NCBI GenBank assembly: GCA_043745805.1
Contig: JAYTSD010000027.1
Location: 1-46,957, forward strand
Direction: 5' to 3'
Origin: Fibrobacteria bacterium
Lineage (GTDB): Bacteria; Fibrobacterota; Fibrobacteria; UBA11236
Length of the DNA: 46,957 nucleotides
The stretch's first letter is position 1. Every line of letters starts with the position of its first letter. Under the pieces are notes generated by a model. It did no database searches and was not told the DNA's origin. It saw only the letters and a program-made list of their open reading frames with translations. Shown here piece by piece: positions 3,402 through 44,878 of this stretch. The position numbers and the translations under genes were made by a program.

Positions 3402-3681
3402 CGGTATTTTTTTGTAAAACGCTATCTTGCGCAAAGCCTTGTAATCCCCAATAAAAGAGCTCAGAATTTAAGTAGAATTTCCACTTCAAGAAAAAAGGTC
3501 GCCCCGATGAGAAACATCCCGTGCCTTTTTACGAGCGCTTTGAACTTCCCCCGCTATAGTAGACCTTTACCCTTGCTGCATTGATAATAAAATTATTTCA
3601 AAATAAAATTTAGCCAATAAGTCATACTTGTTTTTTGCAAGAGTTTACGCTTATACCTTGCAATAGGTTTTTTATTTAAAG

Positions 3682-5328: not shown

Positions 5329-5343
5329 ACTAATCGGGATGAT

Positions 5344-5934: not shown

Positions 5935-5935
5935 A

Positions 5936-7960: not shown

Positions 7961-7976
7961 ATAGCCTCAATAATCT

Positions 7977-9689: not shown

Positions 9690-9698
9690 AATAATCTC

Positions 9699-9782
9699 CT
9701 AAAAGCGATCGGGACGGAATAATGTGTAAAAGAGATAGCCTAATAGAGCTAAGCCTATGATTCCCATTAATAAATTTTCCAT
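9699..9782 (-). CDS. kdpF: K+-transporting ATPase subunit F (27 aa)
   Basis: Manual translation MENLLMGIIGLALLGYLFYTLFRPDRF*, with the typical YL-x-Y-x-L-x-x-P-[DE]-x-F end; immediately upstream of kdpA. Confidence 0.9.
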   Translation of the reverse strand: MENLLMGIIGLALLGYLFYTLFRPDRF

Positions 9783-9892
9783 TAATCATTCCTCCCCATA
9801 TGTTTACCTTGCCCTTGCAAAAACAACTTAAGCCCGAAAATACAGAGAAGAAAAAATGCTACTTGTAGGGTAATGAAAAGTATATCTAACAT
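9782..9892 (-). CDS. Small single-TM peptide (36 aa) upstream of kdpF
   Basis: MLDILFITLQVAFFLLCIFGLKLFLQGQGKHMGRND*; TAATG-coupled to kdpF and starts 3 nt after the kinase stop. Confidence 0.6.
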   Translation of the reverse strand: MLDILFITLQVAFFLLCIFGLKLFLQGQGKHMGRND

Positions 9893-9895
9893 GAT

Positions 9896-11713: not shown

Positions 11714-11727
11714 AAACACTCCACAAC

Positions 11728-11743
11728 TGCAAGGCACATGCCA
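11728..11743 (-). promoter_or_regulatory. Sigma54 (-24/-12) promoter
   Basis: Minus strand TGGCATGTGCCTTGCA, GG-N10-GC with TTGCA at -12; next to a sigma54 activator gene. Confidence 0.75.
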
Positions 11744-11814
11744 GAATAAAGGTTAGAAATCCCCTTTAAAATGATGGGATTTGTGGAGTGTTGATTATGA
11801 AATTATAGCGGACC

Positions 11815-11827
11815 TTGCAAAATGCAA
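11815..11827. promoter_or_regulatory. Putative enhancer-binding-protein site
   Basis: Inverted repeat TTGCA-AAA-TGCAA about 100 bp upstream of the predicted sigma54 start site. Confidence 0.5.
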
Positions 11828-11882
11828 GCTTATGCCTTTATGACATGGAAAAATGAAATGGTTGGGAGTTTTATAAATGAGA

Positions 11883-13226: not shown

Positions 13227-13238
13227 TTGGCTCTATTA

Positions 13239-15506: not shown

Positions 15507-15542
15507 AAGATGTCTTTCTATTTTTTTGTTTTTATAAAAAAA

Positions 15543-15830
15543 TTAATCCCAAATGATGCCAGGCTTGGCTTCGGGTAATTTGTCTTTGTTTTTTTTAGCC
15601 CATTCGAATTTCTTATTTAATAAATCCATTTTCGAATCTTCTTTGCTTTTGGCATCGGCAAATTTTTGCTCTAAATCATCTTTGCGAGTTTTATCTCCTT
15701 GCAAAAAACTTTCCAAAGAAATCGGGGCTTCCTTATGCGCTGTAAATTGAATTATGCCGCCATTGACGGAATCAATGATCAATTTAGCTCGACAACAAGG
15801 GCACTCGATTTTTAATTCTTTAGCTTCCAT
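15543..15830 (-). CDS. Conserved-looking hypothetical protein, CxxC ribbon plus coiled coil
   Basis: IECPCC..LIID N-terminus and charged helical C-terminus; GAGGA RBS before MEAKEL. Confidence 0.6.
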   Translation of the reverse strand: MEAKELKIECPCCRAKLIIDSVNGGIIQFTAHKEAPISLESFLQGDKTRKDDLEQKFADAKSKEDSKMDLLNKKFEWAKKNKDKLPEAKPGIIWD

Positions 15831-15913
15831 TTTATTTGAGTCCTCTTTTTTCCCTTGAGCCAAACAAGGTCTTTATTAATATACCCTGCAAAGGTTGATT
15901 TCCAAAAATATTT

Positions 15914-17719
15914 TTAGAATTTTTCTAATTTCAAAATATGCATTACTTCTTTATGCGGATTTAACTCCACATAATTAAAAGCGCCGCTCCAGACATAGCT
16001 TTCATGGCTGAGTAAATCATAGACTCCATAGATTTTTTCATTTTGTAATTCTAAAGCGCTTAAATCAAGCTCTAAGGTGGCATTTTGCGTATTTAAAGGG
16101 TCCAAATTTACTACGAACAGCAAAGTGGCATGCTCATCGGTTTTGGAATAAACCACTAATTGAGGATTATTGCTTTTGTGAAAATGAATATTCTTGTAAA
16201 ATTGTAAAGCCGTATATTCTTTGCGAAGTGTATTAATCGCTTGAATAAAAGGTTTAATATGTCCCGGCCTATCCCAATCCCAAACTTTATACTGATACTT
16301 TTCCGAAAATCCATATTCTTCTTTGCCCGGATAGGGTGTGCCTTCACATAATTCATAACCATTATACATGCCATAACTACCAACTAAAGTGGCTGCCAAT
16401 GCAAAACGAATTTTAAACATGGCGGGCGTTGCATTTTGTAATTGAAGTGGTAATATGTCGGGAGTAGTAGGGAAGAATATGCCTTTCATAAATAAGGCTG
16501 GTGCTTGTTGAGTTAACTCTTCAACATATTCCTGAATTTCTTTACTTTCGGTGCGCCAAGTAAAATAAGTGTACGACAAATCGAAACCAATTTTTGCCAA
16601 ACGCTTCATGACTTTAGGTTTAGTAAAGGCTTCGGCCAAGAAAATAATTTCGGGATTCCGTGTTTTGATTTCACGAATCACCCATTCCCAAAAACCAAAG
16701 GGCTTGGTATGCGGATTATCGACGCGGAAAATAGTGATGCCTCTATCCACCCAAAATTCTAAAATGGATTTTATTTCCATCCATAAATTTTCTTTATCAT
16801 TACAAAAAAAGTTTAAGGGATAAACATCTTCATAACGCTTGGGAGGGTTTTCGGCACATTTAATAGTGCCATCTTTTTCGCGATAAAACCAATCGGGATG
16901 ATCTTTTACATAAGGATGATCCGGTGAGCAATTGAGTGCAAAATCCAAGGCGATATTAAATCCCATAGACTGGCAGCGTGCTAAAAATTTTTCACAATCC
17001 TTTAAGGTTCCCAGTTCAGGATCGACCTGCTTGTGACCGCCTACTTCATTGCCAATGGCATAGGGACATCCAGGTTCGCCAGGTAAAGCCGTTAAACTAT
17101 TATTGCGGCCTTTGCGTTTGGTGCGACCAATGGGATGTAGTGGTGTGAGGTAAATCACATCAAATCCTAATTGAGCTATGGCTGGAAGTCGACTTTCCAT
17201 ATCGGCAAAGGATGCGCTTTTATTAGGATCGGACCCTTGCGAGCGTCCCCACATTTCATACCAAGCACTAAACTGTGTGAGTGGCGAATCGACGCGTAAT
17301 TTTCCGGAAGGATTATAAGTAAAAGGGATTTCACCTAGAGCCGGACCATTTTGGGTTTGCGCCTGAACGGTGAATTCATATTCTCCTTCGGGGCCGGCAA
17401 TAAATTCTCCGGCAAAGCCATCATTGTCCACAAAAAGAAAAGGCAGTTTTTGCCAAGTTTTTGCGCCTACTTTTCTCACCAATAAAATGGCTTCGCAAGG
17501 TCCATGACCATCACGGAAAATATCCGCTGTCACAGTAATTTTTTCACCTGGAATAGCTTTGATAGGGTAATAGTGTTCTAGTGTCGGTTGTAAATTTTCC
17601 ACCACCGTATGATGATTTGCGGGCAGCGGATGCATGGCAGGTAAGGATTTTGCCAGTGCGCTGGGTTTTGAGGTTTTAGTTAATGTTTTAGATACTACTT
17701 TAGATTTTTTTTTAAGCAT
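15914..17719 (-). CDS. glgE: Alpha-1,4-glucan:maltose-1-phosphate maltosyltransferase (GH13_3)
   Basis: ADIFRDGH, RKGRNN, AENPPKRYEDVYP, FRVDNPHTKP, FLAEAF and TPDIL motifs. Confidence 0.93.
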   Translation of the reverse strand: MLKKKSKVVSKTLTKTSKPSALAKSLPAMHPLPANHHTVVENLQPTLEHYYPIKAIPGEKITVTADIFRDGHGPCEAILLVRKVGAKTWQKLPFLFVDNDGFAGEFIAGPEGEYEFTVQAQTQNGPALGEIPFTYNPSGKLRVDSPLTQFSAWYEMWGRSQGSDPNKSASFADMESRLPAIAQLGFDVIYLTPLHPIGRTKRKGRNNSLTALPGEPGCPYAIGNEVGGHKQVDPELGTLKDCEKFLARCQSMGFNIALDFALNCSPDHPYVKDHPDWFYREKDGTIKCAENPPKRYEDVYPLNFFCNDKENLWMEIKSILEFWVDRGITIFRVDNPHTKPFGFWEWVIREIKTRNPEIIFLAEAFTKPKVMKRLAKIGFDLSYTYFTWRTESKEIQEYVEELTQQAPALFMKGIFFPTTPDILPLQLQNATPAMFKIRFALAATLVGSYGMYNGYELCEGTPYPGKEEYGFSEKYQYKVWDWDRPGHIKPFIQAINTLRKEYTALQFYKNIHFHKSNNPQLVVYSKTDEHATLLFVVNLDPLNTQNATLELDLSALELQNEKIYGVYDLLSHESYVWSGAFNYVELNPHKEVMHILKLEKF

Positions 17720-24498: not shown

Positions 24499-25845
24499 TT
24501 AGCGCGAAAAAGAGTTTTGTCTATAACCACTCTTTGCAGGGCGATCACTAGGCTGAGGTCGACGGCCATGCGAAGCTCCCGAAGTAGGTCGTGCGGGTGC
24601 CGCAGCAGGACGAAAACCTTGATTTGAAAGAGGAACTGCGCGATGATCGCGATGTTCATGGTGGATTTGTGGTTTCGCTGAACGGGCTGGAGGCGGTGTC
24701 GCGGCAGGTGGAGCAAGTACTTCTAATTGAGGCGTGTCCATGATCTTTAAGCGTTGACGAATCAAGCGTTCGATATCCCCTAATAAATGTCTTTCTTCGC
24801 TATCGCAAAAAGAAAAAGAAATTCCGGAAGCACCCGCTCTGGCGGTACGGCCAATGCGATGCACATAGGTTTCGGGAACTTCGGGCAAATCATAATTGAC
24901 TACATGAGTCACATCATCAACGTCAATACCACGTGAAGCCAAATCAGTTGCAATAAGTACGCGGCAAGATCCATCTTTAAAACGTGATAAAGAACGTTGA
25001 CGAGCATTCTGAGATTTATTGCCATGAATCGCTTCAGCGGCAATACGATATTTATCTAAAATGCGAGTTAATTTATCGGCACCATGTTTGGTACGGGTGA
25101 AAACTAATACGCGGCTAACCGCTTCATCGCTAAGCACATGACGTAACAAAGCCGGTTTGTATTCGCGACGCACGTGATAAACACTTTGCTCAATACGATC
25201 CGCAGTTGAGGAAACAGGTGCCACTTCAATAAATACCGGCTTATTCAAAAGGCTATCCGCCAATTTGCGAATTTCAGGTGGCATGGTCGCCGAAAACAAA
25301 AGGGTTTGGCGTTGATTGGGTAACAGTTTGGATATGCGACGTACATCATGTACAAAACCCATATCCAACATGCGATCCGCTTCATCAAGCACAAAAAATT
25401 CTATGCCGTCTAAGGTGAGTGCGCGTTGTTCCAGTAAATCCATAAGACGACCCGGTGTCGCTACTAAAATATCTACGCCCTGACGTAAACGATTTTTTTG
25501 CGGAACATCACTGACGCCACCAAAAACTACGGCTTGTGAAAGGCGCAGGTTACGTCCATAAGAAGCAAAGCTTTCGGCGATTTGCACTGCGAGTTCGCGT
25601 GTAGGGGTTAAAATTAAAGCGCGTACTTTTTTACGTGGCGCGGTGGCATTAGCCGTAAGAATATGCAACATAGGTAAGGCAAAAGCTGCGGTTTTTCCGG
25701 TACCCGTTTGCGCACATCCTAATAAATCACGCTTTTCCAAAATAGGAGGAATCGCCGCGGCTTGAATAGGGGTGGGTTGCTCATAACCTTCGGCAGTTAA
25801 AGCCGAAAGAATAGCTGGGTTTAATTGGAGATCTTTAAAATGCAT
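24499..25845 (-). CDS. rhlE: DEAD-box RNA helicase, RhlE-like
   Basis: Q motif PTPIQ, AQTGTGKT, PTRELA, DEAD, SAT, IHGNKSQ and HRIGRTAR; disordered basic tail. Confidence 0.9.
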   Translation of the reverse strand: MHFKDLQLNPAILSALTAEGYEQPTPIQAAAIPPILEKRDLLGCAQTGTGKTAAFALPMLHILTANATAPRKKVRALILTPTRELAVQIAESFASYGRNLRLSQAVVFGGVSDVPQKNRLRQGVDILVATPGRLMDLLEQRALTLDGIEFFVLDEADRMLDMGFVHDVRRISKLLPNQRQTLLFSATMPPEIRKLADSLLNKPVFIEVAPVSSTADRIEQSVYHVRREYKPALLRHVLSDEAVSRVLVFTRTKHGADKLTRILDKYRIAAEAIHGNKSQNARQRSLSRFKDGSCRVLIATDLASRGIDVDDVTHVVNYDLPEVPETYVHRIGRTARAGASGISFSFCDSEERHLLGDIERLIRQRLKIMDTPQLEVLAPPAATPPPARSAKPQIHHEHRDHRAVPLSNQGFRPAAAPARPTSGASHGRRPQPSDRPAKSGYRQNSFSR

Positions 25846-25861
25846 GGAATAAAATCCTTGT

Positions 25862-26120
25862 TTATATGATAGGCGGGGTGAAAACCCTGTGCCTCATAAG
25901 CTTCCCCGCTGGGGCTTTTAGAGGGCTGCGCCCAACTATCCGTAAAGGGTAAGAAGGCGCTTTATCGGCTGTTATCAGTCGAACAGGAACTATGCTCATA
26001 TTATTTTGAATAGGCTCATAGTCTTTCGGACTAGTGAACACCGACACCTAATAGGGGATGGATTCGCGTCCGCAGGAAGACTAACTATGGTTTCGTTTTA
26101 AATGAGAGGCAGTTAGTAAC
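25862..26120. ncRNA. Candidate structured RNA upstream of rhlE (leader or divergent sRNA)
   Basis: Dense series of hairpins, GC-richer than the flanks; no recognised Rfam family. Confidence 0.4.
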
Positions 26121-26225
26121 AGTCCTTAACATCTAAGTTACATTAATTTTGGAAAAATAAAAGGGGTAACCTAGATATTCCTCGCTAAACTCGAAAAACC
26201 CGCAAATTGCTTAACAAATAAGCCC

Positions 26226-27830
26226 TTAATTCGCGTGATGTCGAATGCGTTCGATATGTCGATTAAATTCCATTATATATTTTTTGGAGGTTAGGGTATC
26301 ACAAATGGGTTTAAGTAATAAACAAAGATGTATCCATTTTTTACCCCACCAGGAAAGCGGAAGCAAATTTCTTTGTACTAAATATTGCATCAAATCACCA
26401 AATAACGCATTCCAAGTAAAAACGCTAATGCCTTTACCCGTTAAAAATGCAGAACGATGACAAATAATCAAATGATGTTCAAGATTATTTAAGGCGGGAT
26501 GTTTATAGCTTGCACCTAATTTATAAAAACCAATTTTTTCATATAGGGGTAACAATTCATTTACGGCGGAAGTTAGGAGCCAATGCCTATCCGACAATAA
26601 AAAATATTTTAAACCATGTTCAAAAATCCCCGTAAGTAAATCGGTACCGCGATAATCCCGATGAATACAAAGACGCGACACTTCGATTAAATTGGATTTA
26701 GGTGGCAAGGCTACGGGATATTTTTGGCCTTCAAAACCTTTTTGACTATCGAGTAAAGTGTCTTCTGTGGTGGGAAAAGCAAATGTCATAGAGCCTACAA
26801 GTTCATCGCGATGCCAGGCCATTAAAATTCTACTTTTGCCATCCAATGAAGAAGCCATTTCTTCAGCGGTCGTACTTTCATTTTTTTTACCTGCTTGCAC
26901 ATAGGCATTACGACGTAAATGTAAAACTTGCGCATAGTCTTCATTGCTTTTTACGGTGCGAAAGCGCAAATGCTCTTTCACGAGTTTGGCTCTAAACCCA
27001 CAAGCACGGAGTTGTGCCGGTGTCCACTGTTGGGAAAAAAGTAATAAATCGCATATGCCATTATGCAGATGATAATTAATGTTTAAACATTGTGATCCAA
27101 ACTTTACTTCATTCTCTCGAAAGGCACTCACCCAACTGATTCGCCCTGTATAAGCTAGGTTGCGGAAATTCGCTATTTCAAAATAAAGTTCAAATTCCAT
27201 TCCGACAAAAACAAAGGTACTTGGGTCTTTAGATAAAAATGAAAACCCCATATGTGGATTTATATCTGCAACCTGTAAGTTACACCAATTTCCTAATAAT
27301 AAAGGATGTTTAAAACGAGCATGTAAGGATAGTTGTGCGCCCATCGGTAAGCGTGGATGCTCTCGCCTTTCGGGAGACATTGGCCTTGGATCATTTAAAT
27401 CTTGACGTCGCAATCCAATTTTAAAACCATCCTTGCGAGAAGAAATATTTTTTACTTCACACCAAACTTGAACGTCTTGTTTATCTGCCGTTTTGATTTG
27501 AACTTGTAAAGCTTGTCCAACATTAATGGCATCAATGTGCTTTACCATTTCAGGGGCAATTAAAATTCCGAAGCCAAGCGAAGAGAAATCCCACAACTTA
27601 ACGGCTTGCCAATCAGCATGATAATTTGATTTTATAAAAGTTTTTATTACTCCAAGCTCACGTTCCGAAATCCGTCCTAAGGCTCTTTGCTCTTGTATAC
27701 TTTGATGTTTAAAAATGCCGGTGTTGAGTTTGCTATAGTCTACTTTAGGGCGCGCTGACCAATCGACAGGGACTTTATCGATTGTCTCTTGGAGTCGGTT
27801 TTTAGATTTTTTCGTTTTAACTAAATTCAC
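26226..27830 (-). CDS. PilZ-PilZ-GNAT fusion (FeeM/LuxI-like N-acyltransferase domain)
   Basis: RALGR + DFSSLG, REHPR + DINPHMG; C-terminal LRRNAYV...IEVSRLCIHRDYRG...LYEKIGF. Confidence 0.75.
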   Translation of the reverse strand: MNLVKTKKSKNRLQETIDKVPVDWSARPKVDYSKLNTGIFKHQSIQEQRALGRISERELGVIKTFIKSNYHADWQAVKLWDFSSLGFGILIAPEMVKHIDAINVGQALQVQIKTADKQDVQVWCEVKNISSRKDGFKIGLRRQDLNDPRPMSPERREHPRLPMGAQLSLHARFKHPLLLGNWCNLQVADINPHMGFSFLSKDPSTFVFVGMEFELYFEIANFRNLAYTGRISWVSAFRENEVKFGSQCLNINYHLHNGICDLLLFSQQWTPAQLRACGFRAKLVKEHLRFRTVKSNEDYAQVLHLRRNAYVQAGKKNESTTAEEMASSLDGKSRILMAWHRDELVGSMTFAFPTTEDTLLDSQKGFEGQKYPVALPPKSNLIEVSRLCIHRDYRGTDLLTGIFEHGLKYFLLSDRHWLLTSAVNELLPLYEKIGFYKLGASYKHPALNNLEHHLIICHRSAFLTGKGISVFTWNALFGDLMQYLVQRNLLPLSWWGKKWIHLCLLLKPICDTLTSKKYIMEFNRHIERIRHHAN

Positions 27831-27860
27831 AAAATCACCATAACTATCTATTTAACATAT

Positions 27861-28526
27861 TCATTTTACGCTGGATACCGCATCTAAAATGCCCTGTAGC
27901 ATAATTCCATGTAACTTACAAGTACCGGTCGCTCCATGGATAATTGCAGCTAAATCATCGGGTGTTTCAATGGTTTCGGTAAAATATTCATGCAACCATT
28001 TTGTATGTACAGAATCTAAATGGGCATGTTCTGCTAAAAAGGACATGGCTTCTGGAGGAATACCTAAGGCCGCTAAACTTTTGAGCAAACTATTACCACT
28101 TAAGGTAGGCAACATTTCTAAATGATACATGTATCCCAAATAGGCTAAAGGATTGGCTCGTTCTACTTGATAGACTGCAAAGGCTAACATCGCTTCGGTA
28201 GTGGCCAAGGGACGACCATGTGGAATACTTGAGGTATCAACACCTAAGGCCTGTAAATCTTTTAAAGCCATTTCATGATGTCCAAATTCAGCGGAACAAT
28301 GACGAAAAATTTTTCCACAAATAGCCATTTTTTTTCCACGTAATTTGGTGGCCATTAAAGCGAGGGTGGGTGGATTTTCTCGGGTATTGTAATAGGTTTC
28401 TCGGAGGAATAATTTATAATGTTCGATTCCCAAAGTACCGGTCTGTAATGCCTGAAAAAAAGTTCCGGTGAATAAAAAATTTTGCGCCTCTAACCAAGCG
28501 GAATGAATTTGATCATTTGGTGACAT
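27861..28526 (-). CDS. Heme-oxygenase-like diiron oxidase (iron-containing redox enzyme; PqqC/TenA/CADD superfamily)
   Basis: All-helical; ETY, EFGH, LGYMYHLE and EHAHLDSVH supply an E/H/D two-metal ligand pattern. Confidence 0.8.
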   Translation of the reverse strand: MSPNDQIHSAWLEAQNFLFTGTFFQALQTGTLGIEHYKLFLRETYYNTRENPPTLALMATKLRGKKMAICGKIFRHCSAEFGHHEMALKDLQALGVDTSSIPHGRPLATTEAMLAFAVYQVERANPLAYLGYMYHLEMLPTLSGNSLLKSLAALGIPPEAMSFLAEHAHLDSVHTKWLHEYFTETIETPDDLAAIIHGATGTCKLHGIMLQGILDAVSSVK

Positions 28527-30093
28527 AGGAAATTTCCATATTCGGGTTAATTATTTCTTGAAATTTCTGCTCCAGTTTCGCCTTATAAATCCTTTCTACT
28601 ACAACCTTCATCCAAAATTTTGCATGCAATATGCATCGTTGTCTGAACGTTAAGGGAATTAAATTTCGAATAACCATTTCCTGTACGACATTTCCATGAG
28701 TGAGGCACCAAGCAATCAAGGACATGTTTTTTCCAATAATTAAATCTTCGCGAGAAAGTATAATTAGATGATGGATTTGATTATTCAAGGAGGCAATGGG
28801 CATTGCTGCGCCAGTTTTAGTAAAACCAATTTTTTCATATAGTGGCATTAATTCATCGGTAACAAATGTGATAACCCAATGACGATCGGACAAGAGAAAA
28901 ATTTTTGAAAGATTAATAAAAAATGCTGTTAATAAATCGGCCTGTCGATAATCCCGATGCGTGCATAATGAAAAAACCTCTATCATTTGTTCTCTAGGAG
29001 GTAACGGGACGGGATATTTTTTTTCAGGAAACTCTCCTTCTGAACGTAAAGATGAATTCGCAGAGTTCGGAAAATTTAAGACGATAGAAGCAATTAATTG
29101 CTTTTTGTGATAGACAGTTAATATGCGACTATGTGCATCTAACTCCAATGCAGAATCTTCAACCTCGGAAAAAGGATTTTTTTTTCCAACAGCCACATAA
29201 GCATTGCGCCTTAAAGTTAACACCTCTGCATATTGCTCCATTGAGCTTACAAAACCAAATTTAATAAGTTCGCACAATTCGCTGACCCAAAAGCCACAAG
29301 CATTTAAGGCGGCAGGTGACCAATTTTCCGTTTGCAAGAAATACTCACCCATACTATTGCATAAGGCTCGAGACATCATAAGTTGATTAACTTTGAAATA
29401 TAAATTTCCGTTTGCGGTCACAAATACTTCGGAGACAATACCGATACATGGCGTGATATCAAATGTGGGTAAATCTAAATGGAGAGAAAACTTCATGCCT
29501 GGGATCACAAGCAAAGAAGGATCATCAGAACTAAAGATTATTTCTGGCCCTTTTCCCAATGCTTCCACATGGCCATAACACCATTCTCGATAAATTATAG
29601 GATTGGCAATTTTTACAACTAACGGAAATTCCGAATGCGGGATAAGGCTCTTGTCGGCTAAGGCACTTTCCACATTGGAAAGAACATTTAATTTTCGGCA
29701 TAAACCAATGCGCAAACCTTTTTCGGTCACGGTTAAATTGGTGACCATACAAGTGGCTTGCACCTTTTCGGATTGGGAAATTTCCAGACATAATTCAATG
29801 GACTCGCCGTTTATCGCTGAAAAAGTATAACCTTTTTGATACGAAAATAATATGCCAAAACCGGTGGGGGAATAATCCCATAGTCGAACAGGTGTCCAGT
29901 TGGGATATTTAAGAGAACGTATCTTAGCGGGTACCTTATCGATTTCTCTTTCCGTGATTCTATCGCTTTTGCGACCTCCTAAAACTTCAAAGGGACGCCA
30001 ACAATCTTGCGGTAGCTTTTCAAGATCAACAGTAACGGGAGACTGTTTTTCACTCCTCTTTTCCTGTATTGAGGTTTGTTCTTGATTACTCAT
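28513..30093 (-). CDS. PilZ-(degenerate PilZ)-GNAT fusion, paralog of 26226-27830
   Basis: RKSDR + DYSPTG; shared LRRNAYV, KYPV-x-LPP, HRDYR and LLSDRHW blocks. Confidence 0.75.
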   Translation of the reverse strand: MSNQEQTSIQEKRSEKQSPVTVDLEKLPQDCWRPFEVLGGRKSDRITEREIDKVPAKIRSLKYPNWTPVRLWDYSPTGFGILFSYQKGYTFSAINGESIELCLEISQSEKVQATCMVTNLTVTEKGLRIGLCRKLNVLSNVESALADKSLIPHSEFPLVVKIANPIIYREWCYGHVEALGKGPEIIFSSDDPSLLVIPGMKFSLHLDLPTFDITPCIGIVSEVFVTANGNLYFKVNQLMMSRALCNSMGEYFLQTENWSPAALNACGFWVSELCELIKFGFVSSMEQYAEVLTLRRNAYVAVGKKNPFSEVEDSALELDAHSRILTVYHKKQLIASIVLNFPNSANSSLRSEGEFPEKKYPVPLPPREQMIEVFSLCTHRDYRQADLLTAFFINLSKIFLLSDRHWVITFVTDELMPLYEKIGFTKTGAAMPIASLNNQIHHLIILSREDLIIGKNMSLIAWCLTHGNVVQEMVIRNLIPLTFRQRCILHAKFWMKVVVERIYKAKLEQKFQEIINPNMEISYVTK

Positions 30094-30254
30094 ATTAATA
30101 CCTAGCTAGCTCAATTATTGTAGAGGATGGCCACTAAAACGCCAAGTTAAAGGTCTATCATTGGGAGTGGATATTTGCGATTAAAGGGGAAGTTTATCTT
30201 TTATAGCCTATCTGAGATCTCAAATTTTTACACCAAGAGCTATAATTTAATGCT

Positions 30255-32414
30255 ATGTCCGAAAAAATTTATTCTAATAAAGTCCTGCAAGCCACCTTTA
30301 GTTATATCGACAAGCACTTAGGCAAAAATGTCAGCGAAGAAATTTTAAATGAATTGGGGGTCGACCGACTTTTTTTTCAAGATGTAAATGATTTTCAAAC
30401 GCTGGAATTTGCCGATCACATGATGGATGTGGCGATCAAGCATACGGGTATAAAAGATTTACCTTATCGTTGCGGCCGAGCCATTGCAGAGAGTACGGGT
30501 GTTTTAGGCGGTTTTGTAGCAGGCATTCTTTCACCATCTATGCTCATGAAACAGTTGGCCAAAGTGGAAGGTCAGTTGGCCCGTAAAACGATTTCCCATA
30601 CCAAAGAATTGAGTCCGAATCATTACCATATAAAAGTTTCTTTTCGTGACGGGTTTCAAGAAGGTATCAATGGATGCCAAAATCGAATTGGATGTTACGA
30701 ATCCTCATCTCGATTTTTTGGCTTACCTTATGCAAATGTAGAACATCCTCAGTGTTTTTTTAGAGGTGATAAGCAATGCGAATACTTTGTGACTATTCCT
30801 GAGTTTGGATTTATTTTCTATCGCAAAATAGCCTTGTTTTTATTTTTTTTGACTTTGATTTTTAGTGTCATCTCTATTGTTTCAGTCCATTCTATTGGGG
30901 CCGGCATAATATCTGCAGTTTGTTTGATCACCGGACTTCTAGCCTATTCTTTTTACAGCTATCAAAACGCCAAAAAATCCATGGAATGGTCCACGCTCAC
31001 CAATGAAGCTGTTCTTCAACAGAAAAATGAATTAGAACGAAGTAATATTCAAGTAAGTTCCTTGCAGAATTTAACGGTTGAACTTAATGCAACGGTTAAG
31101 TTGCAAGATATTTGTGAAATTGTTACGCATACCTTAACCAAAAGTTTTCAATATGATTCTAGTCAAATTTGGTTATTAGATGATTCCAAAAAAAATCTTT
31201 TCTGTAAAAGTGCAATTGGCTATAGTCCGGATTTAATGCAGCGCTTATTGGCCACTCAGTTTGAAATGGGGCAGGGTTGGGATAATCCGCATGGGCTATT
31301 GATTCAAACCTTGGAGCAAGGCAAAACACTTTTGGTAAATGATGTGGATGAGGCCTTAGCAAAATTATCTGCAAGTACTCGCGCATTTTTATCCACTTTA
31401 AAAATGTCCTCTTTCATTATTACACCACTTTTCGATCAACAAACTCCCATTGGAATTTTATCTGCGGAAAATCATCATGGTAAAAAAGTGGAAAATAAAG
31501 ATAAATTGCTTTTTCATTCCATTTCCAATATTGTAGCGAATGCCTTAGTGAAATCCGATTTATTTACCTCGTTGGAAGAAAAAATTCAGGAGCGCACAAA
31601 AGAACTTGAAGCCACTACGGAACAGTTAATGCTTGCCAAGGAAATGGCCATACAAAGTGAAAAGATGTCTTCATTAGGGCAAATGGCTGCTGGTGTGGCG
31701 CATGAAATCAATAATCCTTTAAACTTTTTGGTTAATATTTTACCAGAATTTAGTCGCGATATCGATGCCTTAGCTAAAATTCGTGACCTAGCTTTAAACG
31801 GGAACTTGGATCAATCCGTTCGTGAGGCCATAACTAAAGTAGATGAAGAAAGTGATTTGTCTGCGCATCTAGAAGAAAAAGAATATGTATTTGGTCGTAT
31901 TACCAAGGCTTTGGGTAAAAGTACGCAAATAGCTAATAGCTTAAAAGTTTTTTCTCGTACTTCTAATAAAGAAAAAATTAGTGTGGAAAATGTAAAACAA
32001 ATGTTTACTAGTGTTTTAGAGATGATTCCAACTCAAGTAATTGGGGATACTGAGGTAGTAATAAATATCGAAGACGATTTGCAATGGAAAGTGAATGCCA
32101 ATGAATTTGAACAAGCTATAATGGTATTAATCAAAAATGCTATTGAGGCTATGGATAAAAAAGGTAAAGTGGAAGTGCTGGGGCACAAAACTCCTCAGGG
32201 TATGTTGCTTTTATTTAAAGATCAGGGTTCGGGAATCCCTTTAAATATTCAAAGGAAAATTTTCGATCCCTTTTTCACTACCAAAGCTCCAGGGCAGGGC
32301 ACAGGCTTAGGGCTTACCATCGCTTTAGAAATATTTAAAAAGTATGGCGGACGTTTGGAATTAGAAAGTGAAACGGGAAAAGGTGCGACCTTTAAAGTGA
32401 CTTTTTTGAAATGA
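30255..32414 (+). CDS. Sensor histidine kinase (V4R/HNOX-like N-terminus, 2 TM, GAF, HisKA, HATPase)
   Basis: CQNRIG...VEHPQCFFRGDKQCEY V4R-like Cys motif; two adjacent TM helices; GAF; AHEINNPL; FFTTK...GTGLGL. Confidence 0.88.
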   Translation: MSEKIYSNKVLQATFSYIDKHLGKNVSEEILNELGVDRLFFQDVNDFQTLEFADHMMDVAIKHTGIKDLPYRCGRAIAESTGVLGGFVAGILSPSMLMKQLAKVEGQLARKTISHTKELSPNHYHIKVSFRDGFQEGINGCQNRIGCYESSSRFFGLPYANVEHPQCFFRGDKQCEYFVTIPEFGFIFYRKIALFLFFLTLIFSVISIVSVHSIGAGIISAVCLITGLLAYSFYSYQNAKKSMEWSTLTNEAVLQQKNELERSNIQVSSLQNLTVELNATVKLQDICEIVTHTLTKSFQYDSSQIWLLDDSKKNLFCKSAIGYSPDLMQRLLATQFEMGQGWDNPHGLLIQTLEQGKTLLVNDVDEALAKLSASTRAFLSTLKMSSFIITPLFDQQTPIGILSAENHHGKKVENKDKLLFHSISNIVANALVKSDLFTSLEEKIQERTKELEATTEQLMLAKEMAIQSEKMSSLGQMAAGVAHEINNPLNFLVNILPEFSRDIDALAKIRDLALNGNLDQSVREAITKVDEESDLSAHLEEKEYVFGRITKALGKSTQIANSLKVFSRTSNKEKISVENVKQMFTSVLEMIPTQVIGDTEVVINIEDDLQWKVNANEFEQAIMVLIKNAIEAMDKKGKVEVLGHKTPQGMLLLFKDQGSGIPLNIQRKIFDPFFTTKAPGQGTGLGLTIALEIFKKYGGRLELESETGKGATFKVTFLK

Positions 32415-32440
32415 AGGGTTCTTAACTTTATTTCAAAAAA

Positions 32441-33253
32441 TTAAGGTCGCTTGGTACTATTTCCTAAAATACTTGGATCTGAATTTTGATCATCAACATC
32501 AGTAACTTTATTGATAATAGGCGGACTGTTTTTTGCATCCGCCGACTTATCCATTAAAGCATAATAAGAGCCGCCCATAATCGCGGCGGCACCCGCAATA
32601 GACCACGCTATTTTTCCTGCCGACCAAAAGCCGGGTGCTTTGCTGGAATCGTTTTTCGGTGGATTTATAGTTTGGGTAACATTCACGTTTTTTTGATAAT
32701 CGAAATAATTAATCCATTCCCCTTTGGAATCTAAATTGTGGGTTTTAACGGAAGGTTCAATAAAAGCAATACATCCTTTAAAATAAACCTTATCAAATAA
32801 AACTTTTCGACTATTTAAAATTAAGGGAGTTGGAGCATTCCAAAATTGGGTATGATGCAATTCTAAGCTAGCCTCTTGCGCAACGAGTATATTGCCCCAA
32901 GCCCCATTTCCGGGTTGTGCTAAAAACCCACTATCGACTAGTGAGCCAGCAAAATAAATGGGTAAATTACTATTCCCTTTTGCCACTAATCGACCTTGAA
33001 CATTGATTTGATTGTCAAGTGAAACTTTTTTGAAATAAAGTAAAGAACCATTAAAAATGGTGGTTATTTGATTGCGTGGGACAATCATGCTATCGCATGG
33101 TAAGGCTATGGGAATAGTGCGAGAGGTATTTTCTCGGCCAATTAATTCTGGCAGCAGGCGATATTTGGCACTATCACCTTGGCAATTATGTTTAGCTAAA
33201 ACCAAGCTTGGCTGCACATAAAATATCATTAATAGCAAAAATAAAATTCTCAT
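32441..33253 (-). CDS. Hypothetical exported protein, beta-helix-like region with a C-terminal hydrophobic segment
   Basis: Signal peptide; VQGRLVAKG...PIYF...WGNI pattern; IAWSIAGAAAIMGG segment; ATGA overlap with the upstream gene. Confidence 0.65.
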   Translation of the reverse strand: MRILFLLLMIFYVQPSLVLAKHNCQGDSAKYRLLPELIGRENTSRTIPIALPCDSMIVPRNQITTIFNGSLLYFKKVSLDNQINVQGRLVAKGNSNLPIYFAGSLVDSGFLAQPGNGAWGNILVAQEASLELHHTQFWNAPTPLILNSRKVLFDKVYFKGCIAFIEPSVKTHNLDSKGEWINYFDYQKNVNVTQTINPPKNDSSKAPGFWSAGKIAWSIAGAAAIMGGSYYALMDKSADAKNSPPIINKVTDVDDQNSDPSILGNSTKRP

Positions 33254-36200
33254 AAGCCACCTTTTACTAACATTTTTCTTTGCGCACTATAATGTTGCTG
33301 CGAGGTTTTCATGGCTAAGGTGCAAATATAAAGTCCTGGTTGCCAAGTGCTACCATCCAGTTTTAAAGAATGCGATCCAGGCATACTAGGTTGAAACACC
33401 TGTTGAAAAACAACTTTGCCCTGCAAATTTCGCACGGTGATTTGTGTGCGTAAAGACCCAAGACCGCCAGGTAAAGAGTATTTGAGTAAGGTTTCTCCGC
33501 GAAAAGGATTTGGGGCATTTGATTCAATGGCTAAGGTTTTAGGTAGGGTAACTTGCCAAGTACTGATGCGATTCTGCACATATTCGGGAGACCCTGCGAT
33601 AAGTTGAAAATTATTTTCGCCAGCAACTAGCGGTAATTGGTCTAAATCACTGGCTTGATACACTTTATTATTTTCGGCATCTAAAAGCGCAAATACGCCT
33701 GCGGCGCCCTGCCATTCGGCTTGTAAAGGTAAAAGGGTGGCTATGGGTGAATGAATAGATAAGGTTTCATCAACCGTATTTAGTTGACTTAAGCGTTTTT
33801 GAAAATACCCGCCAATTTGCAAGGAAAAGTCTTCTTCTAAAGGCGATAAGAATGGGGCTTGTCTTTTTGCCGTTCCGGTAAATAAGGAAGCTTGTAGGTT
33901 ACGGTTTAAAATCAAGGATAAGCTGTTGCCATTATTGCTTGGATTATTGGGAGCTGATTTTTTATTGAGTAGGGAAGGGTTGAATAAGTTGATGGGATTA
34001 AAGCTTAACTTTAAGGCTGAATCCGCATGAATGAAATAGCCAATAAATGGCTTTAAAGTCGTAGTCGTATCCCAATGCGCAGTATTTGTGTTCCACAAAT
34101 AAAAGTTTGAAGTTGAATTTTCATCGAATGCTATCGCATTTTCTGAAAAGGAGAAATGATATGGATTCGAAATTAAATTCCAACCCGAGTCGAGTTTAAG
34201 GGTGTCGGGATTTAAGGAGGGCATGGTATTGTCCTGAATATTTATTTGAAATGACTCTTCAGCTGCAAATAAATATCCTTTACCTCTTTCTAAAATTAAT
34301 GTGTCATTTAAGGTATTCTTCACCCATTTATCTTTTTTCCATTCTTTGAAAACAGGAAGAAGTTTTGGTGTGACTTTTGGTTTTAATTGCTTTGCATAAT
34401 TCCCATTAAAAGGAATGCCGATTAATTGTTTCTTTAATGCATGATATGTAGGAACTGCATTTTGTATGACAGTTGAAAATTTCCGTTCATCAGGAATAGG
34501 TAACCATTGACCGAGCGCACTGGGCACACCAGCTTGCGTTTTAAAATTAATTTGATAAAAATAACTGTTGGTATTGGAGAGGGATAAATTTGTGGCTTGG
34601 GTAATGAGATCAAAATTACCTATGATTTTTTGTGTGCTGCCATCCGGTTCAAGTCGTAACAAATTCATTTGGTATTTTAGGCTATTAAAATTTGCGGTAT
34701 CAGAGCCAAGTGTGGGGACAAAACTCCAAGTGTTTCCTTTTAAAGGAGTCGGTTTTTGCGGAAGCGGAGAATAAGGCGTACGATCTTCTGGTTTAAGCTT
34801 TTCATAAGCTAAAATGTATTTCACCTTGGAAAGTTTTCCGCTACGGCCAAAGACAATACGGTTTCCAGCTATATAGCCTTTGGAATTGGTTAATTCATTC
34901 CATAAAGTTCCATTTTCGGAAGTCATTAGGCGTACAGAGTCTAAGTTGATGATGGGATCATTTAAATCAAAACTTAAATCAAAATTTACACTATCCATAT
35001 TGATTAAAGTGATTTTTCGACCCCCTCTAAATACCTTCGTGGAATCATTTTTTATGCTATCGGGAATTATAGTTGCGTCCAGTAGGCCCACTAGAATGTT
35101 TCCTGGTCTGGTAGCGATAATTTTGTTGAGTTTATCTCCGTTGGCTAGGCTTACATTAAAGGATGAATCGCGCGGAATTGGATAGGCTGTTGCCAGTAAA
35201 AATATTTTATTCGTGTCGGTCGTTTGTAAAAAAATGGAATAGGTAGAATTCACTTTTATGAGATTCGGAAGAGAATCAAGCTGATTATTATTTCGTACAT
35301 AAGCATGTTGAGAGGCATCTTTGGTTAGCAATTTCAAAGTTAATGAATCATTGGCATTCACGCGGCCTACCCAATGGAAAGCATAAGGATTTCCGAAGTT
35401 GGTGTTGAATTTGAGGCTACTCGTGTCAAAGGCAATAATATCACGCGAGATTTGATAACCAGGGGATGCCGTTTTGTATAGTAAATCTTGCCCAGACAAT
35501 TTTAAGGTATCGCGAAGGTTACCTAGGCTTAAATGTTCGGTTAAAATACCTTGCAGGCTGGATGCGAAATTTGTGCTGACATAGTATTTATTAGCAGAAT
35601 CAATGGCTTTGAGTGCGGTTCCATTATTTAACTCAAAATACAATGAGTCTTTTATGAAGGCAGTATCAACACCATTTTTGGTTATGCCGATGGTAACAAG
35701 TCCTGAACCTTCTGCATTGGTTGTAGAGCTGAATCCATGACTGTTTCCGTTTTTTTGTAAAATGCGATGTCTTTTGTTTGAGTCAGAATAATTCAAAGGT
35801 TGAGTAATGGTTCTACCCGTGCGAGAAATATTGGCAAAGCGGAAGGACGTGTCGACGCTTAAATCAACGGTAACATTGATTCCCTTTTTGGTATTTTGAT
35901 TTGTAAATACCGGAACAAAAATTTTCGCGGTGCTTATGGTATTGGTAAAAATGCTATCACTTTCATTTCCTGCAATATCTGCATGGTATGTACCCGAATA
36001 AAAATTGAATAACATGGGTGCGCCTAAAGTTTTCGAGCCCGGAAATAAAATGGAATTAATGACTACGGGGCCGGTAATTATTAAGGCGGTATCTTTTTTC
36101 CAAAAAGTTCGGTTTGCTTCTACAATAGCGGAATAGGGTGTTGTCGTGTCATAGTTAATGGATATTACTCTAGGAATTGAGGAGGCATTTACGGTTAACT

Positions 36201-37278
36201 TAAGGCTATCCTTGCCCAGCTTTGTCGTAAAATTTGTGCTATCAGGAAATAAATTATAAGTGGGATAATTAGCTGAACCTGGGTTTTGATAACCGCGATT
36301 GGTTTCCGTAATATTTTTGAAACTCCATTTTGAGATTGGATCAGTAAATACGGGAATAATTGGATTGCTACTTGCGTCCGAAAATCCAAGTCCAGAAGGA
36401 TAATCAAATCCAGCCCATTCGGCGAAACGGGCATTACCGGTAATACTTCCACTACTACCCCAATTGGACTGAGTCATAATCCATTTACTGGGGCTTCCTA
36501 CTATAGACGTTGTAGCTGGCGCATGTCCAAAAATATTATTGTCACAAAAAAGCGCGGATTGAAAATTTCCCGACAAAGTGAATTGAGTATAGTTCACGGT
36601 ATTATTCGAAAGGGTTAAGCGATGTTTTGTCGCTGAGGCAATGAATTCTCCGGCAAAATTGAAATAATTATTTTTTAGGGAAACAGTATCGCTAGAAATA
36701 TTGACTTTGGTGCTTGTGCTTAAGCCGATGGAAAAAATATTTCGCTTTATTTCCACCGATGAGGTAGAGGTCCCTAACCAAGAGATAAATGTGGTATTCA
36801 GTACATCACCAAAAATTTGGCAGGAATCTATACTCAAATTTTTATTCTCGCTACCTATGATATAGCCTTCGATTAATTTGGCGGCATCGCTTTTTGCTTT
36901 AAAAGCCAGATTGCGAAAGCGTACTGAACCTAAGTTGTTTTTGAAACTAAATAGCGTTCCTTGGAATTCAATAATCTCCGAACTATTTGCGTCATCGCGA
37001 ATAAACACTAGGCTATCGCCACTGAAACTATTTAAAACGAGGGTTCCGATATTTACATAGGATTGAAAGCGTACAATATAGGAGGTGTTGGCGTGGCTGC
37101 TTATGTCATTGGCCAGGGCGGTTAAATTATTACTCGCATCTATTAAATAAGTCGTTGTAGCGGCACTTAGGCTTGCCCAAGAAAACAGTACTATAAACAA
37201 GGAAAAGACCTTGTGATTTAGGACCGTCAATGGTTTTATCTTACGAGTGAAATTCATTCCCCAAAAAGATAAAAACAA
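33250..37278 (-). CDS. Large secreted beta-rich protein with a T9SS type A / FlgD-Ig-like C-terminal domain
   Basis: Signal peptide (..ASLSA), N-terminal beta-helix-like repeats, GWNLISNPY, and NAPNPF...VRNLQGKVV...PGLY...KMLVK at the C-terminus. The true start may be slightly downstream. Confidence 0.75.
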   Translation of the reverse strand: MFLSFWGMNFTRKIKPLTVLNHKVFSLFIVLFSWASLSAATTTYLIDASNNLTALANDISSHANTSYIVRFQSYVNIGTLVLNSFSGDSLVFIRDDANSSEIIEFQGTLFSFKNNLGSVRFRNLAFKAKSDAAKLIEGYIIGSENKNLSIDSCQIFGDVLNTTFISWLGTSTSSVEIKRNIFSIGLSTSTKVNISSDTVSLKNNYFNFAGEFIASATKHRLTLSNNTVNYTQFTLSGNFQSALFCDNNIFGHAPATTSIVGSPSKWIMTQSNWGSSGSITGNARFAEWAGFDYPSGLGFSDASSNPIIPVFTDPISKWSFKNITETNRGYQNPGSANYPTYNLFPDSTNFTTKLGKDSLKLTVNASSIPRVISINYDTTTPYSAIVEANRTFWKKDTALIITGPVVINSILFPGSKTLGAPMLFNFYSGTYHADIAGNESDSIFTNTISTAKIFVPVFTNQNTKKGINVTVDLSVDTSFRFANISRTGRTITQPLNYSDSNKRHRILQKNGNSHGFSSTTNAEGSGLVTIGITKNGVDTAFIKDSLYFELNNGTALKAIDSANKYYVSTNFASSLQGILTEHLSLGNLRDTLKLSGQDLLYKTASPGYQISRDIIAFDTSSLKFNTNFGNPYAFHWVGRVNANDSLTLKLLTKDASQHAYVRNNNQLDSLPNLIKVNSTYSIFLQTTDTNKIFLLATAYPIPRDSSFNVSLANGDKLNKIIATRPGNILVGLLDATIIPDSIKNDSTKVFRGGRKITLINMDSVNFDLSFDLNDPIINLDSVRLMTSENGTLWNELTNSKGYIAGNRIVFGRSGKLSKVKYILAYEKLKPEDRTPYSPLPQKPTPLKGNTWSFVPTLGSDTANFNSLKYQMNLLRLEPDGSTQKIIGNFDLITQATNLSLSNTNSYFYQINFKTQAGVPSALGQWLPIPDERKFSTVIQNAVPTYHALKKQLIGIPFNGNYAKQLKPKVTPKLLPVFKEWKKDKWVKNTLNDTLILERGKGYLFAAEESFQINIQDNTMPSLNPDTLKLDSGWNLISNPYHFSFSENAIAFDENSTSNFYLWNTNTAHWDTTTTLKPFIGYFIHADSALKLSFNPINLFNPSLLNKKSAPNNPSNNGNSLSLILNRNLQASLFTGTAKRQAPFLSPLEEDFSLQIGGYFQKRLSQLNTVDETLSIHSPIATLLPLQAEWQGAAGVFALLDAENNKVYQASDLDQLPLVAGENNFQLIAGSPEYVQNRISTWQVTLPKTLAIESNAPNPFRGETLLKYSLPGGLGSLRTQITVRNLQGKVVFQQVFQPSMPGSHSLKLDGSTWQPGLYICTLAMKTSQQHYSAQRKMLVKGGL

Positions 37279-44518: not shown

Positions 44519-44878
44519 ATGGAAAAAGGTAAAAAAACAGGGAGGCTTCCTCTTCCAGTCAACCGCGTGCTTCGAAAATTAGGTCAGGATATTTCCGATG
44601 CTAGACGGAGACGGCGTATACCCGCTGCTCTTTTGGCGGAAAGAGCGGCTATTAATCGTATGACGCTTTATAAAATTGAAAGGGGAATGCCTGGAGTATC
44701 CATGGGTTCCTATACAACGGTACTTTTTGTATTAGGTTTGATGGAGCCGCTAAATAGTTTAGCCGAGGCAAAAAATGATCCCATTGGACTTGCCCTCGAA
44801 GAAGAAAGGCTGCCGAAAAGGATTCATCTTCCACGCAAAAAAAAGATGATTCCGCCGAAAGCAAAGGATCACAAATAA
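44519..44878 (+). CDS. XRE-family HTH antitoxin (HipB-like)
   Basis: ARRRRRIP..LAERAAINRMTLYKIERG..GVSMG HTH; TAATG-coupled to hipA. Confidence 0.85.
   Translation: MEKGKKTGRLPLPVNRVLRKLGQDISDARRRRRIPAALLAERAAINRMTLYKIERGMPGVSMGSYTTVLFVLGLMEPLNSLAEAKNDPIGLALEEERLPKRIHLPRKKKMIPPKAKDHK

Follow-up and report, generated by a model that had tools for sequence, protein, structure and literature searches.

What would a bacterium gain by keeping, side by side, two acyltransferases fused to PilZ-type domains, an oxygen-using diiron enzyme, and a sensor kinase read from the opposite strand? This question is raised by positions 26226-32414 of a 46,957 nucleotide stretch of DNA from a Fibrobacteria bacterium (GenBank assembly GCA_043745805.1, contig JAYTSD010000027.1, positions 1 to 46,957 of the forward strand), which is called the window below. 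These four genes make up a real, conserved and so far undescribed module of known domain families, in which two PilZ-fused N-acyl amino acid synthases (NAS) of the FeeM type, here called A and B, flank a heme-oxygenase-like diiron oxidase (HDO), and the divergent kinase carries an N-terminal domain with an H-NOX-like fold. A trio of NAS, HDO and sensor is also found in a second phylum, the Bdellovibrionota. To the fuller reading, that the region is one module for the cyclic di-GMP (c-di-GMP)-gated synthesis of an oxidatively tailored N-acyl amino acid, with a dedicated heme-less H-NOX-like sensor, we give somewhat less than an even chance. The genes are arranged as follows:

26226-27830, minus strand: gene A, tandem-PilZ plus FeeM-type NAS, 534 amino acids (aa), GTG start
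27861-28526, minus strand: HDO gene, heme-oxygenase-like diiron oxidase, 221 aa
28513-30093, minus strand: gene B, PilZ/PilZ-like plus FeeM-type NAS, paralogue of A, 526 aa
30094-30254, no strand: divergent intergenic region of 161 bp, a putative shared control region
30255-32414, plus strand: sensor histidine kinase gene, 719 aa

An earlier reading made from the letters alone (the sequence-only reading) had described a tight operon with a 14-nt overlap between B and the HDO gene, a 30-nt gap between the HDO gene and A, and a 161-bp divergent spacer, and the open reading frame (ORF) coordinates bear this out. The three biosynthetic genes occupy about 3.9 kb, and since they follow one another in the same direction, with an overlap at one junction and 30 nt at the other, they are probably co-transcribed. 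The source genome (3.95 Mb, 99% complete) has this cassette once and the sensor domain once, only beside the cassette; it also has seven GGDEF matches and so is able to make c-di-GMP. Among the sequencing runs listed for it none is of RNA; four are DNA runs of sediment metagenomes, all from a single study, and two of them may be where this DNA came from. The 161-bp spacer contains a single promoter-like match, on the minus strand at 30145-30117, and the palindromes found in it are short only. Shuffled sequence yields promoter- and terminator-like sites at least as often as 25700-32700 does, and Rfam finds nothing at gathering score in the whole window.

The two synthases, the oxidase and the kinase

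In Pfam, protein A matches FeeM with 39.1 bits (cut-off 27) over residues 302-449, and also Acetyltransf_5, and protein B matches FeeM with 29.2 bits (cut-off 27); among 21 members of the family FeeM is found in all 21 and PilZ in 11, the best PilZ E value being 9.5e-9. B is 35% identical to A across 97% of its length in a full-length alignment. No NCBIfam family takes in A or B, the NAS subfamilies, including a PEP-CTERM-associated one, among them. The parts of A are:

27396-27698, minus strand: PilZ module 1, about residues 45-145, with R49xxxR53 and D81xSxxG86 (D81FSSLG86)
27075-27383, minus strand: PilZ-like module 2, about residues 150-252, with R156xxxR160 and the variant motif D189xN191xxxG195
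26457-26966, minus strand: FeeM-type NAS (GNAT) domain, about residues 289-458, with catalytic Glu383 in 'IEVSRL'
26229-26456, minus strand: C-terminal three-helix extension, residues 459-534

The c-di-GMP signature of PilZ domains is RxxxR followed, about 20-30 residues on, by (D/N)xSxxG, and in both A and B DxSxxG sits 28 residues after RxxxR. Residue D81 of module 1 is invariant in the alignments, with R49 and R53 kept in at least 90% of sequences; R156, R160, D189, N191 and G195 of module 2 are invariant in 71 A-type sequences, and that second motif is missing from the B-type proteins. The corresponding single motif of B, R41xxxR45 and D73xSxxG78 (D73YSPTG78), is conserved in 31 B-type sequences together with the catalytic E372. 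An AlphaFold model of A, built on 89 sequences (pLDDT 89, pTM 0.84), has two beta-barrels, a GNAT domain and the three-helix C-terminal extension, whose helices (470-486, 494-505 and 507-533) are modelled with pLDDT above 89 and include an invariant W473. The RxxxR segment is of low pLDDT and disordered in the model, which is consistent with what is expected of an unliganded PilZ domain. In Foldseek searches the N-terminal part of A finds the solved PilZ receptors YcgR (5y6f), MotI (5vx6), PP4397 (3kyf), PlzA (7mie), VCA0042 and MrkH with E values of 3e-7 to 3e-6, and its GNAT part ranks FeeM (2g0b) first, with E 1.4e-8 and 13-15% identity. The description of A and B as twin PilZ-GNAT proteins thus holds by conserved motifs in both and, for A, by a modelled barrel fold like that of solved PilZ receptors, and the placing of their GNAT domains with FeeM rather than with protein acetyltransferases holds by the Pfam matches and the kept catalytic Glu.

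That glutamate, E383 of A, does not vary among 89 sequences, and in both paralogues it stands in the motif 'IEV(S)xL'. Where a GNAT would usually have the pyrophosphate loop R/Q-x-x-G-x-G/A, the family has a conserved Y393-R-G-T-D397 (A numbering). Judged by motif similarity rather than by structural superposition, E383 of A and E372 of B appear to match Glu103 of the metagenomic synthase Nas354 (Glu95 of FeeM). In Nas354 the catalytic Glu103 lies in 'IAEVSAL', as given by the mutagenic primer, and the alanine mutant lost its phenotypes (PMC4897644).

In a tree the Fibrobacteria A and B proteins are sister clades within one group (SH-aLRT 100), with the Bdellovibrionota forms outside it; this was obtained by a quick method with a single outgroup row and has long branches, and it points to a lineage-specific duplication. 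The paralogues may also associate with one another. A complex prediction for A 61-534 with B 53-526 gave weak support, with a median score of 0.47 (runs of 0.57, 0.39 and 0.47; best control 0.01), with at least 71% of contacts agreeing among runs and a partner pLDDT of at least 74. Of 157 solved complexes 116 reach the mark that it passes, as do 2 of 215 mismatched pairs, and scores up to 0.60 include 18 of the 157 solved complexes and both of the passing mismatches, so that a pass of this size is more often wrong unless the pairing is already likely; an A/B heterodimer is possible on this prediction.

A search of 5.8 billion proteins returned 93 matches: 76 A-like proteins (44-58% identity, the window's A included), 16 B-like proteins (32-37% identity, the window's B included) and one spurious ABC protein, and all matches that carry an organism name are from Fibrobacteria or Fibrobacteres metagenome-assembled genomes (MAGs). 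A profile search of 1.84 billion representatives reaches further, with 367 clusters at E <=1e-30, many of them full-length (470-520 aa); FeeM was found in 15 of 15 and PilZ in 11 of 15 sampled representatives. The Atlas holds FeeM/PilZ clusters whose commonest phylum is Spirochaetota, Bdellovibrionota or Pseudomonadota, and this spread over several phyla indicates that the PilZ-FeeM fusion is a broad, unstudied family.

The middle gene had been read as a heme-oxygenase-like diiron oxidase, and this is confirmed by a match to Pfam PF14518 (Haem_oxygenas_2) of 83.5 bits (cut-off 28.9) and by invariant metal-ligand residues. A search found 53 homologues, nearly all of which match PF14518 only. 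Nine residues, E43, H76, E80, H83, E137, E166, H167, D171 and H174, are invariant in 24 sequences that include the Bdellovibrio copies, and the EFGH and HxxxDxxH motifs align with those of MboA, a diiron HDO of solved structure (9ypi, E 0.0018). The nearest PDB sequence is 3dde (E 6e-21), a protein without assigned function. In NCBIfam the HDO is unnamed, with 20.8 bits against a cut-off of 200 for the CADD model and no match to the PqqC model. Enzymes of this kind hold their metals with three His and three or four carboxylates on the core helices, according to a review of HDOs (PMC13108848), and the conserved H83, H167 and H174 with E43, E80, E137 and D171 fit such a set.

The kinase has Pfam matches to GAF (283-431) and HATPase_c (616-717, 70.6 bits) and a weak one to HisKA (474-499, 18 bits, under the cut-off), and an H-box, 'AHEINNPL', can be seen in its translation. 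The LuxN model of NCBIfam gives a weak partial match to the kinase core, with 53.9 bits against a cut-off of 1550. Residues 1-192 match no Pfam family at E up to 5, HNOB (PF07700) and V4R (PF02830) included. Two parts lie ahead of the GAF domain:

30255-30809, plus strand: N-terminal heme-less H-NOX-like domain, residues 1-185, with C141/H164/C167/C175
30804-30962, plus strand: hydrophobic hairpin, residues 184-236, with two membrane helices predicted by a Kyte-Doolittle scan

With two membrane helices between them, the sensor at the N-terminus and the GAF/kinase parts would share one side of the membrane, presumably the cytoplasmic one. A model of the sensor domain from 16 orthologues (pLDDT 86) finds H-NOX 2o09 in Foldseek with E 3.7e-7 and TM-scores of 0.67-0.72, and VIA-align superposes it on H-NOX structures with Z 15.7 (rmsd 3.4, 174 residues) and Z 15.4 (rmsd 3.3, 170 residues). 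The other matches are to the VirS N-terminal domain (Z 11.0), Bet3 (9.4), PoxR (9.3), DmpR (9.0) and the V4R protein 2oso (8.7); those to PoxR, DmpR and the V4R protein align about 130-140 residues, and all are below H-NOX. The sequence-only reading had called this N-terminus V4R-like, and it was right in the class of fold but not in the nearest relative. H-NOX proteins that bind heme have a proximal heme-ligating His and a YxSxR propionate motif. In the 16 sequences helix 94-108, which by an approximate mapping is the expected position of the proximal His, has no conserved His and has an invariant E105, and segment 133-139 reads GFxExxx, with no YxSxR motif. By its model, then, this part of the kinase is better called a heme-less H-NOX-like domain. 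C141, H164 and C167 are invariant in it and C175 nearly so, and this Cys/His cluster sits where the C-terminal HxxC...C of the Shewanella H-NOX aligns.

Recurrence of the neighbourhood in two phyla

Among 17 Fibrobacterota loci with an A-type gene, the order B-HDO-A is found in 14 and the kinase lies divergent beside it in 14; two of the 17 are broken by contig ends. The sequence-only reading had counted a kinase not syntenic with homologous operons elsewhere as evidence against itself, and these counts, with a sensor domain that the source genome has nowhere else, speak in its favour. The kinases in related loci are orthologous over their full length at about 46-53% identity. Since the gene order recurs in related genomes, mostly of one Fibrobacteria family, at about 50% protein identity, the arrangement is not due to chance. 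The three parts also come and go together: in a set of 39 genomes from the order, with G254, flagged as unpublished, included, 21 have the NAS, 18 the sensor domain, 18 the HDO and 16 all three, and the 18 with none comprise a small-genome genus (0/12) and a sister family (0/6). Phylum-wide, only 23 of 296 genomes have the NAS.

Some of these loci are elaborated. The locus L003 of a Fibrobacteres MAG (3110-17498) has two tandem kinase paralogues and two B-HDO-A cassettes with a class III cyclase gene between, so that sensor and cassette are equal in copy number. Another, L015, is labelled 'uncultured Bifidobacteriales' and has a kinase, an extra HDO, B, HDO and A, with 46-56% identity to the window proteins; its taxonomic label is probably wrong. 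A class III cyclase gene occurs in five Fibrobacterota loci (beside the cassette in L003 and L007); the sensor domain is missing from it. An ABC-F ATPase gene lies downstream in 11 loci; it is not beside the cassette in the window and was treated as plain synteny rather than as a part of the module.

In the Bdellovibrionota, two Bdellovibrio MAG loci (L018 and L019) have an HDO gene, about 34% identical to that of the window, directly before a gene for a 577-aa PilZ-FeeM protein, and their divergent neighbour encodes an N-terminal domain, a membrane segment, a GAF domain and a class III cyclase; the same HDO-NAS pair is on a short contig in L020. A sample of 301 Bdellovibrionota genomes was searched with the PilZ-NAS profile, and of nine NAS plus HDO loci fetched, seven have the sensor domain adjacent, always fused to a class III cyclase, and the other two end at the contig start. 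A less biased set consists of ten loci around strong HDO matches that were picked regardless of NAS; a FeeM NAS is adjacent in eight of them (seven over the Pfam cut-off), mostly PilZ-less and 197-246 aa long, and a sensor-cyclase is adjacent in six. The order and orientation of these genes vary from locus to locus, which argues for selection on the neighbourhood. Since the HDO is also paired with NAS genes that have no PilZ part, the wider family can do without that fusion. The robust core is therefore the HDO with a FeeM NAS. To this core the H-NOX-like sensor is often joined as a third partner, with an interchangeable output, and some members of the family have a PilZ fusion in addition.

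The Bdellovibrionota sensor-cyclases (L019:5939-8236, minus strand; L028:8327-10555, plus; L029:2798-4975, minus; L030:3840-5978, minus; L033:7386-9566, minus; L038:4168-5892, plus; and others) have an H-NOX-like N-terminus without evident heme ligands, membrane helices, often a GAF domain, and a class III adenylate/guanylate cyclase. One Bdellovibrionota locus, L036 (5029-10445), has three HDO paralogues, a PilZ-less FeeM NAS and a sensor-cyclase, with an aldo-keto reductase, an EamA transporter and a methyltransferase near, and resembles an enlarged form of the pathway that includes an exporter.

What the module may make and sense

Under the reading set out at the start, the FeeM-type domains of A and B would most likely transfer a fatty acyl group from acyl carrier protein (ACP) to an amino acid or amine, and the N-terminal PilZ barrels would most likely bind c-di-GMP and switch the synthase. 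The HDO would use O2 and tailor the N-acyl amino acid (desaturation, decarboxylation, C-C cleavage and N-oxygenation are examples of what it might do); alternatively it may make an unusual amine that is then acylated. The divergent kinase would be a dedicated, membrane-anchored sensor, in which the cytoplasmic heme-less H-NOX-like pocket and/or the GAF domain most likely binds the lipid product or a precursor, and the signal would be passed by phosphotransfer to a response regulator. A synthase/tailoring/receptor module was also what the sequence-only reading had proposed; its domains (apart from the V4R label), residues and synteny stand, while the product, its gating by c-di-GMP and its sensing, and with them the use of acyl-ACP, the amino-acid substrate and the order of steps, are what we infer from these.

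Several observations weigh against this reading. With regard to c-di-GMP, the Pfam PilZ model gives A as a whole 22.2 bits (cut-off 22.5), with its N-terminal 260 aa alone reaching 25.4 bits in two stretches, B has no Pfam PilZ match, and in many A-type homologues the G of DxSxxG is substituted (consensus DFTSISFG). With regard to acyl transfer, generic acetyltransferases match the GNAT part of A nearly as well as FeeM in fold (5jph, E 1.1e-7, with a higher target TM-score). The partnership is also looser than the Fibrobacterota counts suggest. Of the 301 Bdellovibrionota genomes 42 match the PilZ-NAS profile, and in 9 of these 42 an HDO match, variously oriented, lies no more than about 3.5 kb away, so that the link is not universal; the 19 strongest NAS matches are HDO-linked in 3 cases. 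Three loci with HDO and NAS (L045-L047) have no sensor, and most Bdellovibrionota versions of the sensor have lost its Cys/His site. In the Fibrobacterota, L004 (1790-11701) consists of two kinase genes, B, another B-like gene and A; it has no HDO, nor does its genome, G256, give an HDO match, and the locus may be a natural 'no-oxidase' version of the pathway. In one MAG, A and B occur singly (L017 and L021). The neighbourhood of the module contains no conserved gene for a response regulator, an ACP or a transporter, nor a conserved fatty-acid gene, and in the window no cognate response regulator for the kinase was found nearby. Adjacency, moreover, cannot tell the product from some other cue as the ligand of the sensor.

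Another logic for the same enzymes is possible, if on the doubtful side: A, B and the HDO may make a bulk surface lipid, biosurfactant or antibiotic at high c-di-GMP (a surfactant of the N-acyltyrosine type, or a membrane lipid like the ornithine or glycine lipids), and the kinase may sense a different cue, such as a fatty acid, a metabolite of host or prey, the redox state or oxygen, with no role beyond the control of the operon's transcription. Surface behaviour is what c-di-GMP typically governs, and the two candidate ligand domains of the kinase, H-NOX-like and GAF, are neither of them tied to the product. The N-acyltyrosines made by Nas343 and Nas354 are surface-active and antibacterial (PMC4897644), and in L045-L047 HDO and NAS are paired in the absence of the sensor. 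Against this, the source genome keeps its only copy of the sensor domain beside the cassette, and in another phylum the sensor accompanies NAS and HDO with a different output domain, a pattern that suits a receptor and its cognate ligand better than a sensor of the general environment.

The steps might also run in the other order, which we think rather unlikely. The HDO would then act first, on a free amino acid, as BesC, HrmI, AetD and PolF do, to give a non-proteinogenic amine or amino acid that the two NAS proteins would acylate, possibly at two positions or with two chains. Two conserved and, by their residues, catalytically intact NAS paralogues would fit two acylations, and most of the characterised HDOs, according to the HDO review and the MboA paper, act on amino acids or derivatives of them; in the same two papers, however, the substrates of UndA are fatty acids and that of MboA is a peptide side chain (PMC13108848, PMC13185094), so a lipidated substrate is equally possible, and the sequence does not decide the order of steps.

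It is improbable that A and B are instead c-di-GMP-regulated acetyltransferases of proteins or small molecules and not lipoamino-acid synthases at all, although mycobacteria offer an analogy in their cyclic-AMP-regulated GNAT protein acetyltransferases. Foldseek returns many acetyl-CoA-dependent GNATs at E values near that of FeeM, and a search of PDB sequences with the PilZ-NAS profile gives weak GNAT matches only, at E 0.13 or worse, the E 0.13 match being serotonin N-acetyltransferase. Fold alone cannot separate a NAS from an acetyltransferase, but three other lines do: on the GNAT part Pfam gives no family over cut-off other than FeeM and the NAS- and OlsB-like Acetyltransf_5; the catalytic Glu motif of NAS enzymes is invariant and the pyrophosphate loop is replaced; and stand-alone FeeM NAS genes occupy the same place beside the HDO in other genomes. 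Very improbable, lastly, is an inherited gene order among close relatives with no functional coupling, for while most of the Fibrobacterota loci come from one family and the conserved but unrelated ABC-F gene shows that plain synteny exists there, the trio is found in the Bdellovibrionota with order, orientation and fusions rearranged, and its three parts are gained or lost together at the genus level.

If the c-di-GMP-gated synthesis of a sensed, oxidised N-acyl amino acid is taken across phyla, the module may belong to an unrecognised class of lipid signalling circuit, present in at least two of them, that runs from c-di-GMP through PilZ-fused synthases and the HDO to an oxidised N-acyl amino acid, and from there through a heme-less H-NOX-type receptor to a histidine kinase in the Fibrobacteria or a class III cyclase in the Bdellovibrionota; this generalisation is tentative and we think it unlikely rather than likely. 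Were it true, the circuit would turn a second messenger that is a nucleotide into a lipid signal, and this back again into phosphorylation or a cyclic nucleoside monophosphate, and it would be the first case of c-di-GMP directly gating the synthesis of a small lipid; the PilZ-gated enzymes of which we know make polysaccharides. It would bring a new class of substrate for HDOs, in a new and phylogenetically coherent HDO subfamily whose obvious partner enzyme would make for a tractable substrate hypothesis. It would likewise bring a non-heme ligand for the H-NOX fold: H-NOX, a heme gas sensor, would gain a heme-less and possibly lipid-binding branch, the cyclase fusion of which in the Bdellovibrionota recalls soluble guanylate cyclase. 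The physiological role of NAS enzymes is described as unclear since their discovery in environmental DNA (PMC4897644); here it would be directly testable, and the small size of the module suits it to heterologous expression.

Other genes of the window and comparison with known systems

The genes around the module were considered as members and set aside: a DEAD helicase, a 270-aa ORF, a 1342-aa protein with a type IX secretion system (T9SS) tail, CobS and RNase II are without BLAST counterpart in related loci. A non-coding stretch of 380 bp (25846-26225) separates gene A from the gene of the DEAD-box helicase (24499-25845, minus strand). A GC-rich hairpin-like segment is visible in this stretch, which has no Rfam match and may be a long 5' leader of the helicase gene. 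On the other side, the genes for the 270-aa protein (32441-33253, minus strand; a hydrophobic segment at its N-terminus, no NCBIfam family) and the 1342-aa protein (33250-37278, minus strand; a weak T9SS C-terminal sorting signal of 20.5 bits against a cut-off of 23) adjoin the kinase gene, and neither is kept in related loci. Farther off, a gene at 3682-5328 (minus strand) encodes a KdpD N-terminal sensor domain fused to PTS EIIA-2 in place of the histidine kinase, beside kdpC/kdpB/kdpA (5344-9689, minus strand), and after the kdp genes come a HAMP kinase (9896-11737), a sigma-54 response regulator (11883-13226) and a GAF-Enzyme I protein that is PtsP-like (13239-15506); the KdpD-EIIA-2 fusion may be a hard-wired link between the nitrogen phosphotransferase system (PTS) and potassium uptake. 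A HipA-like kinase gene (44878-46134, plus strand; HipA_C, E 1e-49) is overlapped by a 169-aa ORF on the opposite strand (44759-45268), and the two may be a toxin-antitoxin locus.

The sequence-only reading did not recognise the module as a characterised system, and we agree: in the open-access PMC and bioRxiv literature we found no description of this gene combination, no NAS partner reported for any characterised HDO, and nothing that joins H-NOX with an N-acyl amino acid. What we found in print is only a NAS-PilZ fusion in the reversed order that makes N-acyltyrosine (PMC4897644). The proteins in question, the metagenomic Nas343 and Nas354 of Thies et al. 2016, are a NAS with a C-terminal PilZ domain and made N-acyltyrosines in E. 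coli; their authors proposed regulation by c-di-GMP but did not demonstrate it (PMC4897644). At about 394 aa they have an N-terminal NAS domain and a single PilZ domain, whereas A has two PilZ barrels at its N-terminus and a three-helix extension at its C-terminus. Their genes presumably lay outside a biosynthetic operon, according to the authors, who mention neither an HDO nor a kinase (PMC4897644); here two paralogues stand together with an HDO and a sensor.

FeeM itself (2g0b) is of the same Pfam family and is the best fold match for the GNAT part of A; unlike the A and B fusions it is a stand-alone domain of about 190 aa, with the 13-15% identity already given for its Foldseek alignment. 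The HDO belongs to the same PF14518/TENA family as UndA, BesC, SznF, AetD, HrmI, PolF and MboA, and its ligand motifs align with those of MboA, but it is distant in sequence from these characterised enzymes. The H-NOX fold, as in the bacterial H-NOX/HnoK pairs and in the H-NOX domain of soluble guanylate cyclase, is shared over the whole sensor domain; the sensor here differs in having neither an HNOB match nor the conserved proximal His, and in being fused to its kinase and membrane-anchored rather than a separate protein. With V4R proteins, with the phenol-sensing domains of PoxR, DmpR and MopR and with the TRAPP protein Bet3 it shares the C-terminal alpha/beta subdomain. Known proteins of that group bind hydrophobic ligands, and one Bet3 entry in the Foldseek list of the sensor, 6aq3, is palmitate-bound.

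LuxM/LuxN and CqsA/CqsS are quorum-sensing pairs of a synthase and a membrane sensor kinase. Their synthase chemistry and receptor domains are unrelated to those described here, and the sensor domain of the window's kinase is predicted to be cytoplasmic; in these pairs, as at this locus, a small-molecule synthase is encoded beside a membrane-bound histidine kinase.

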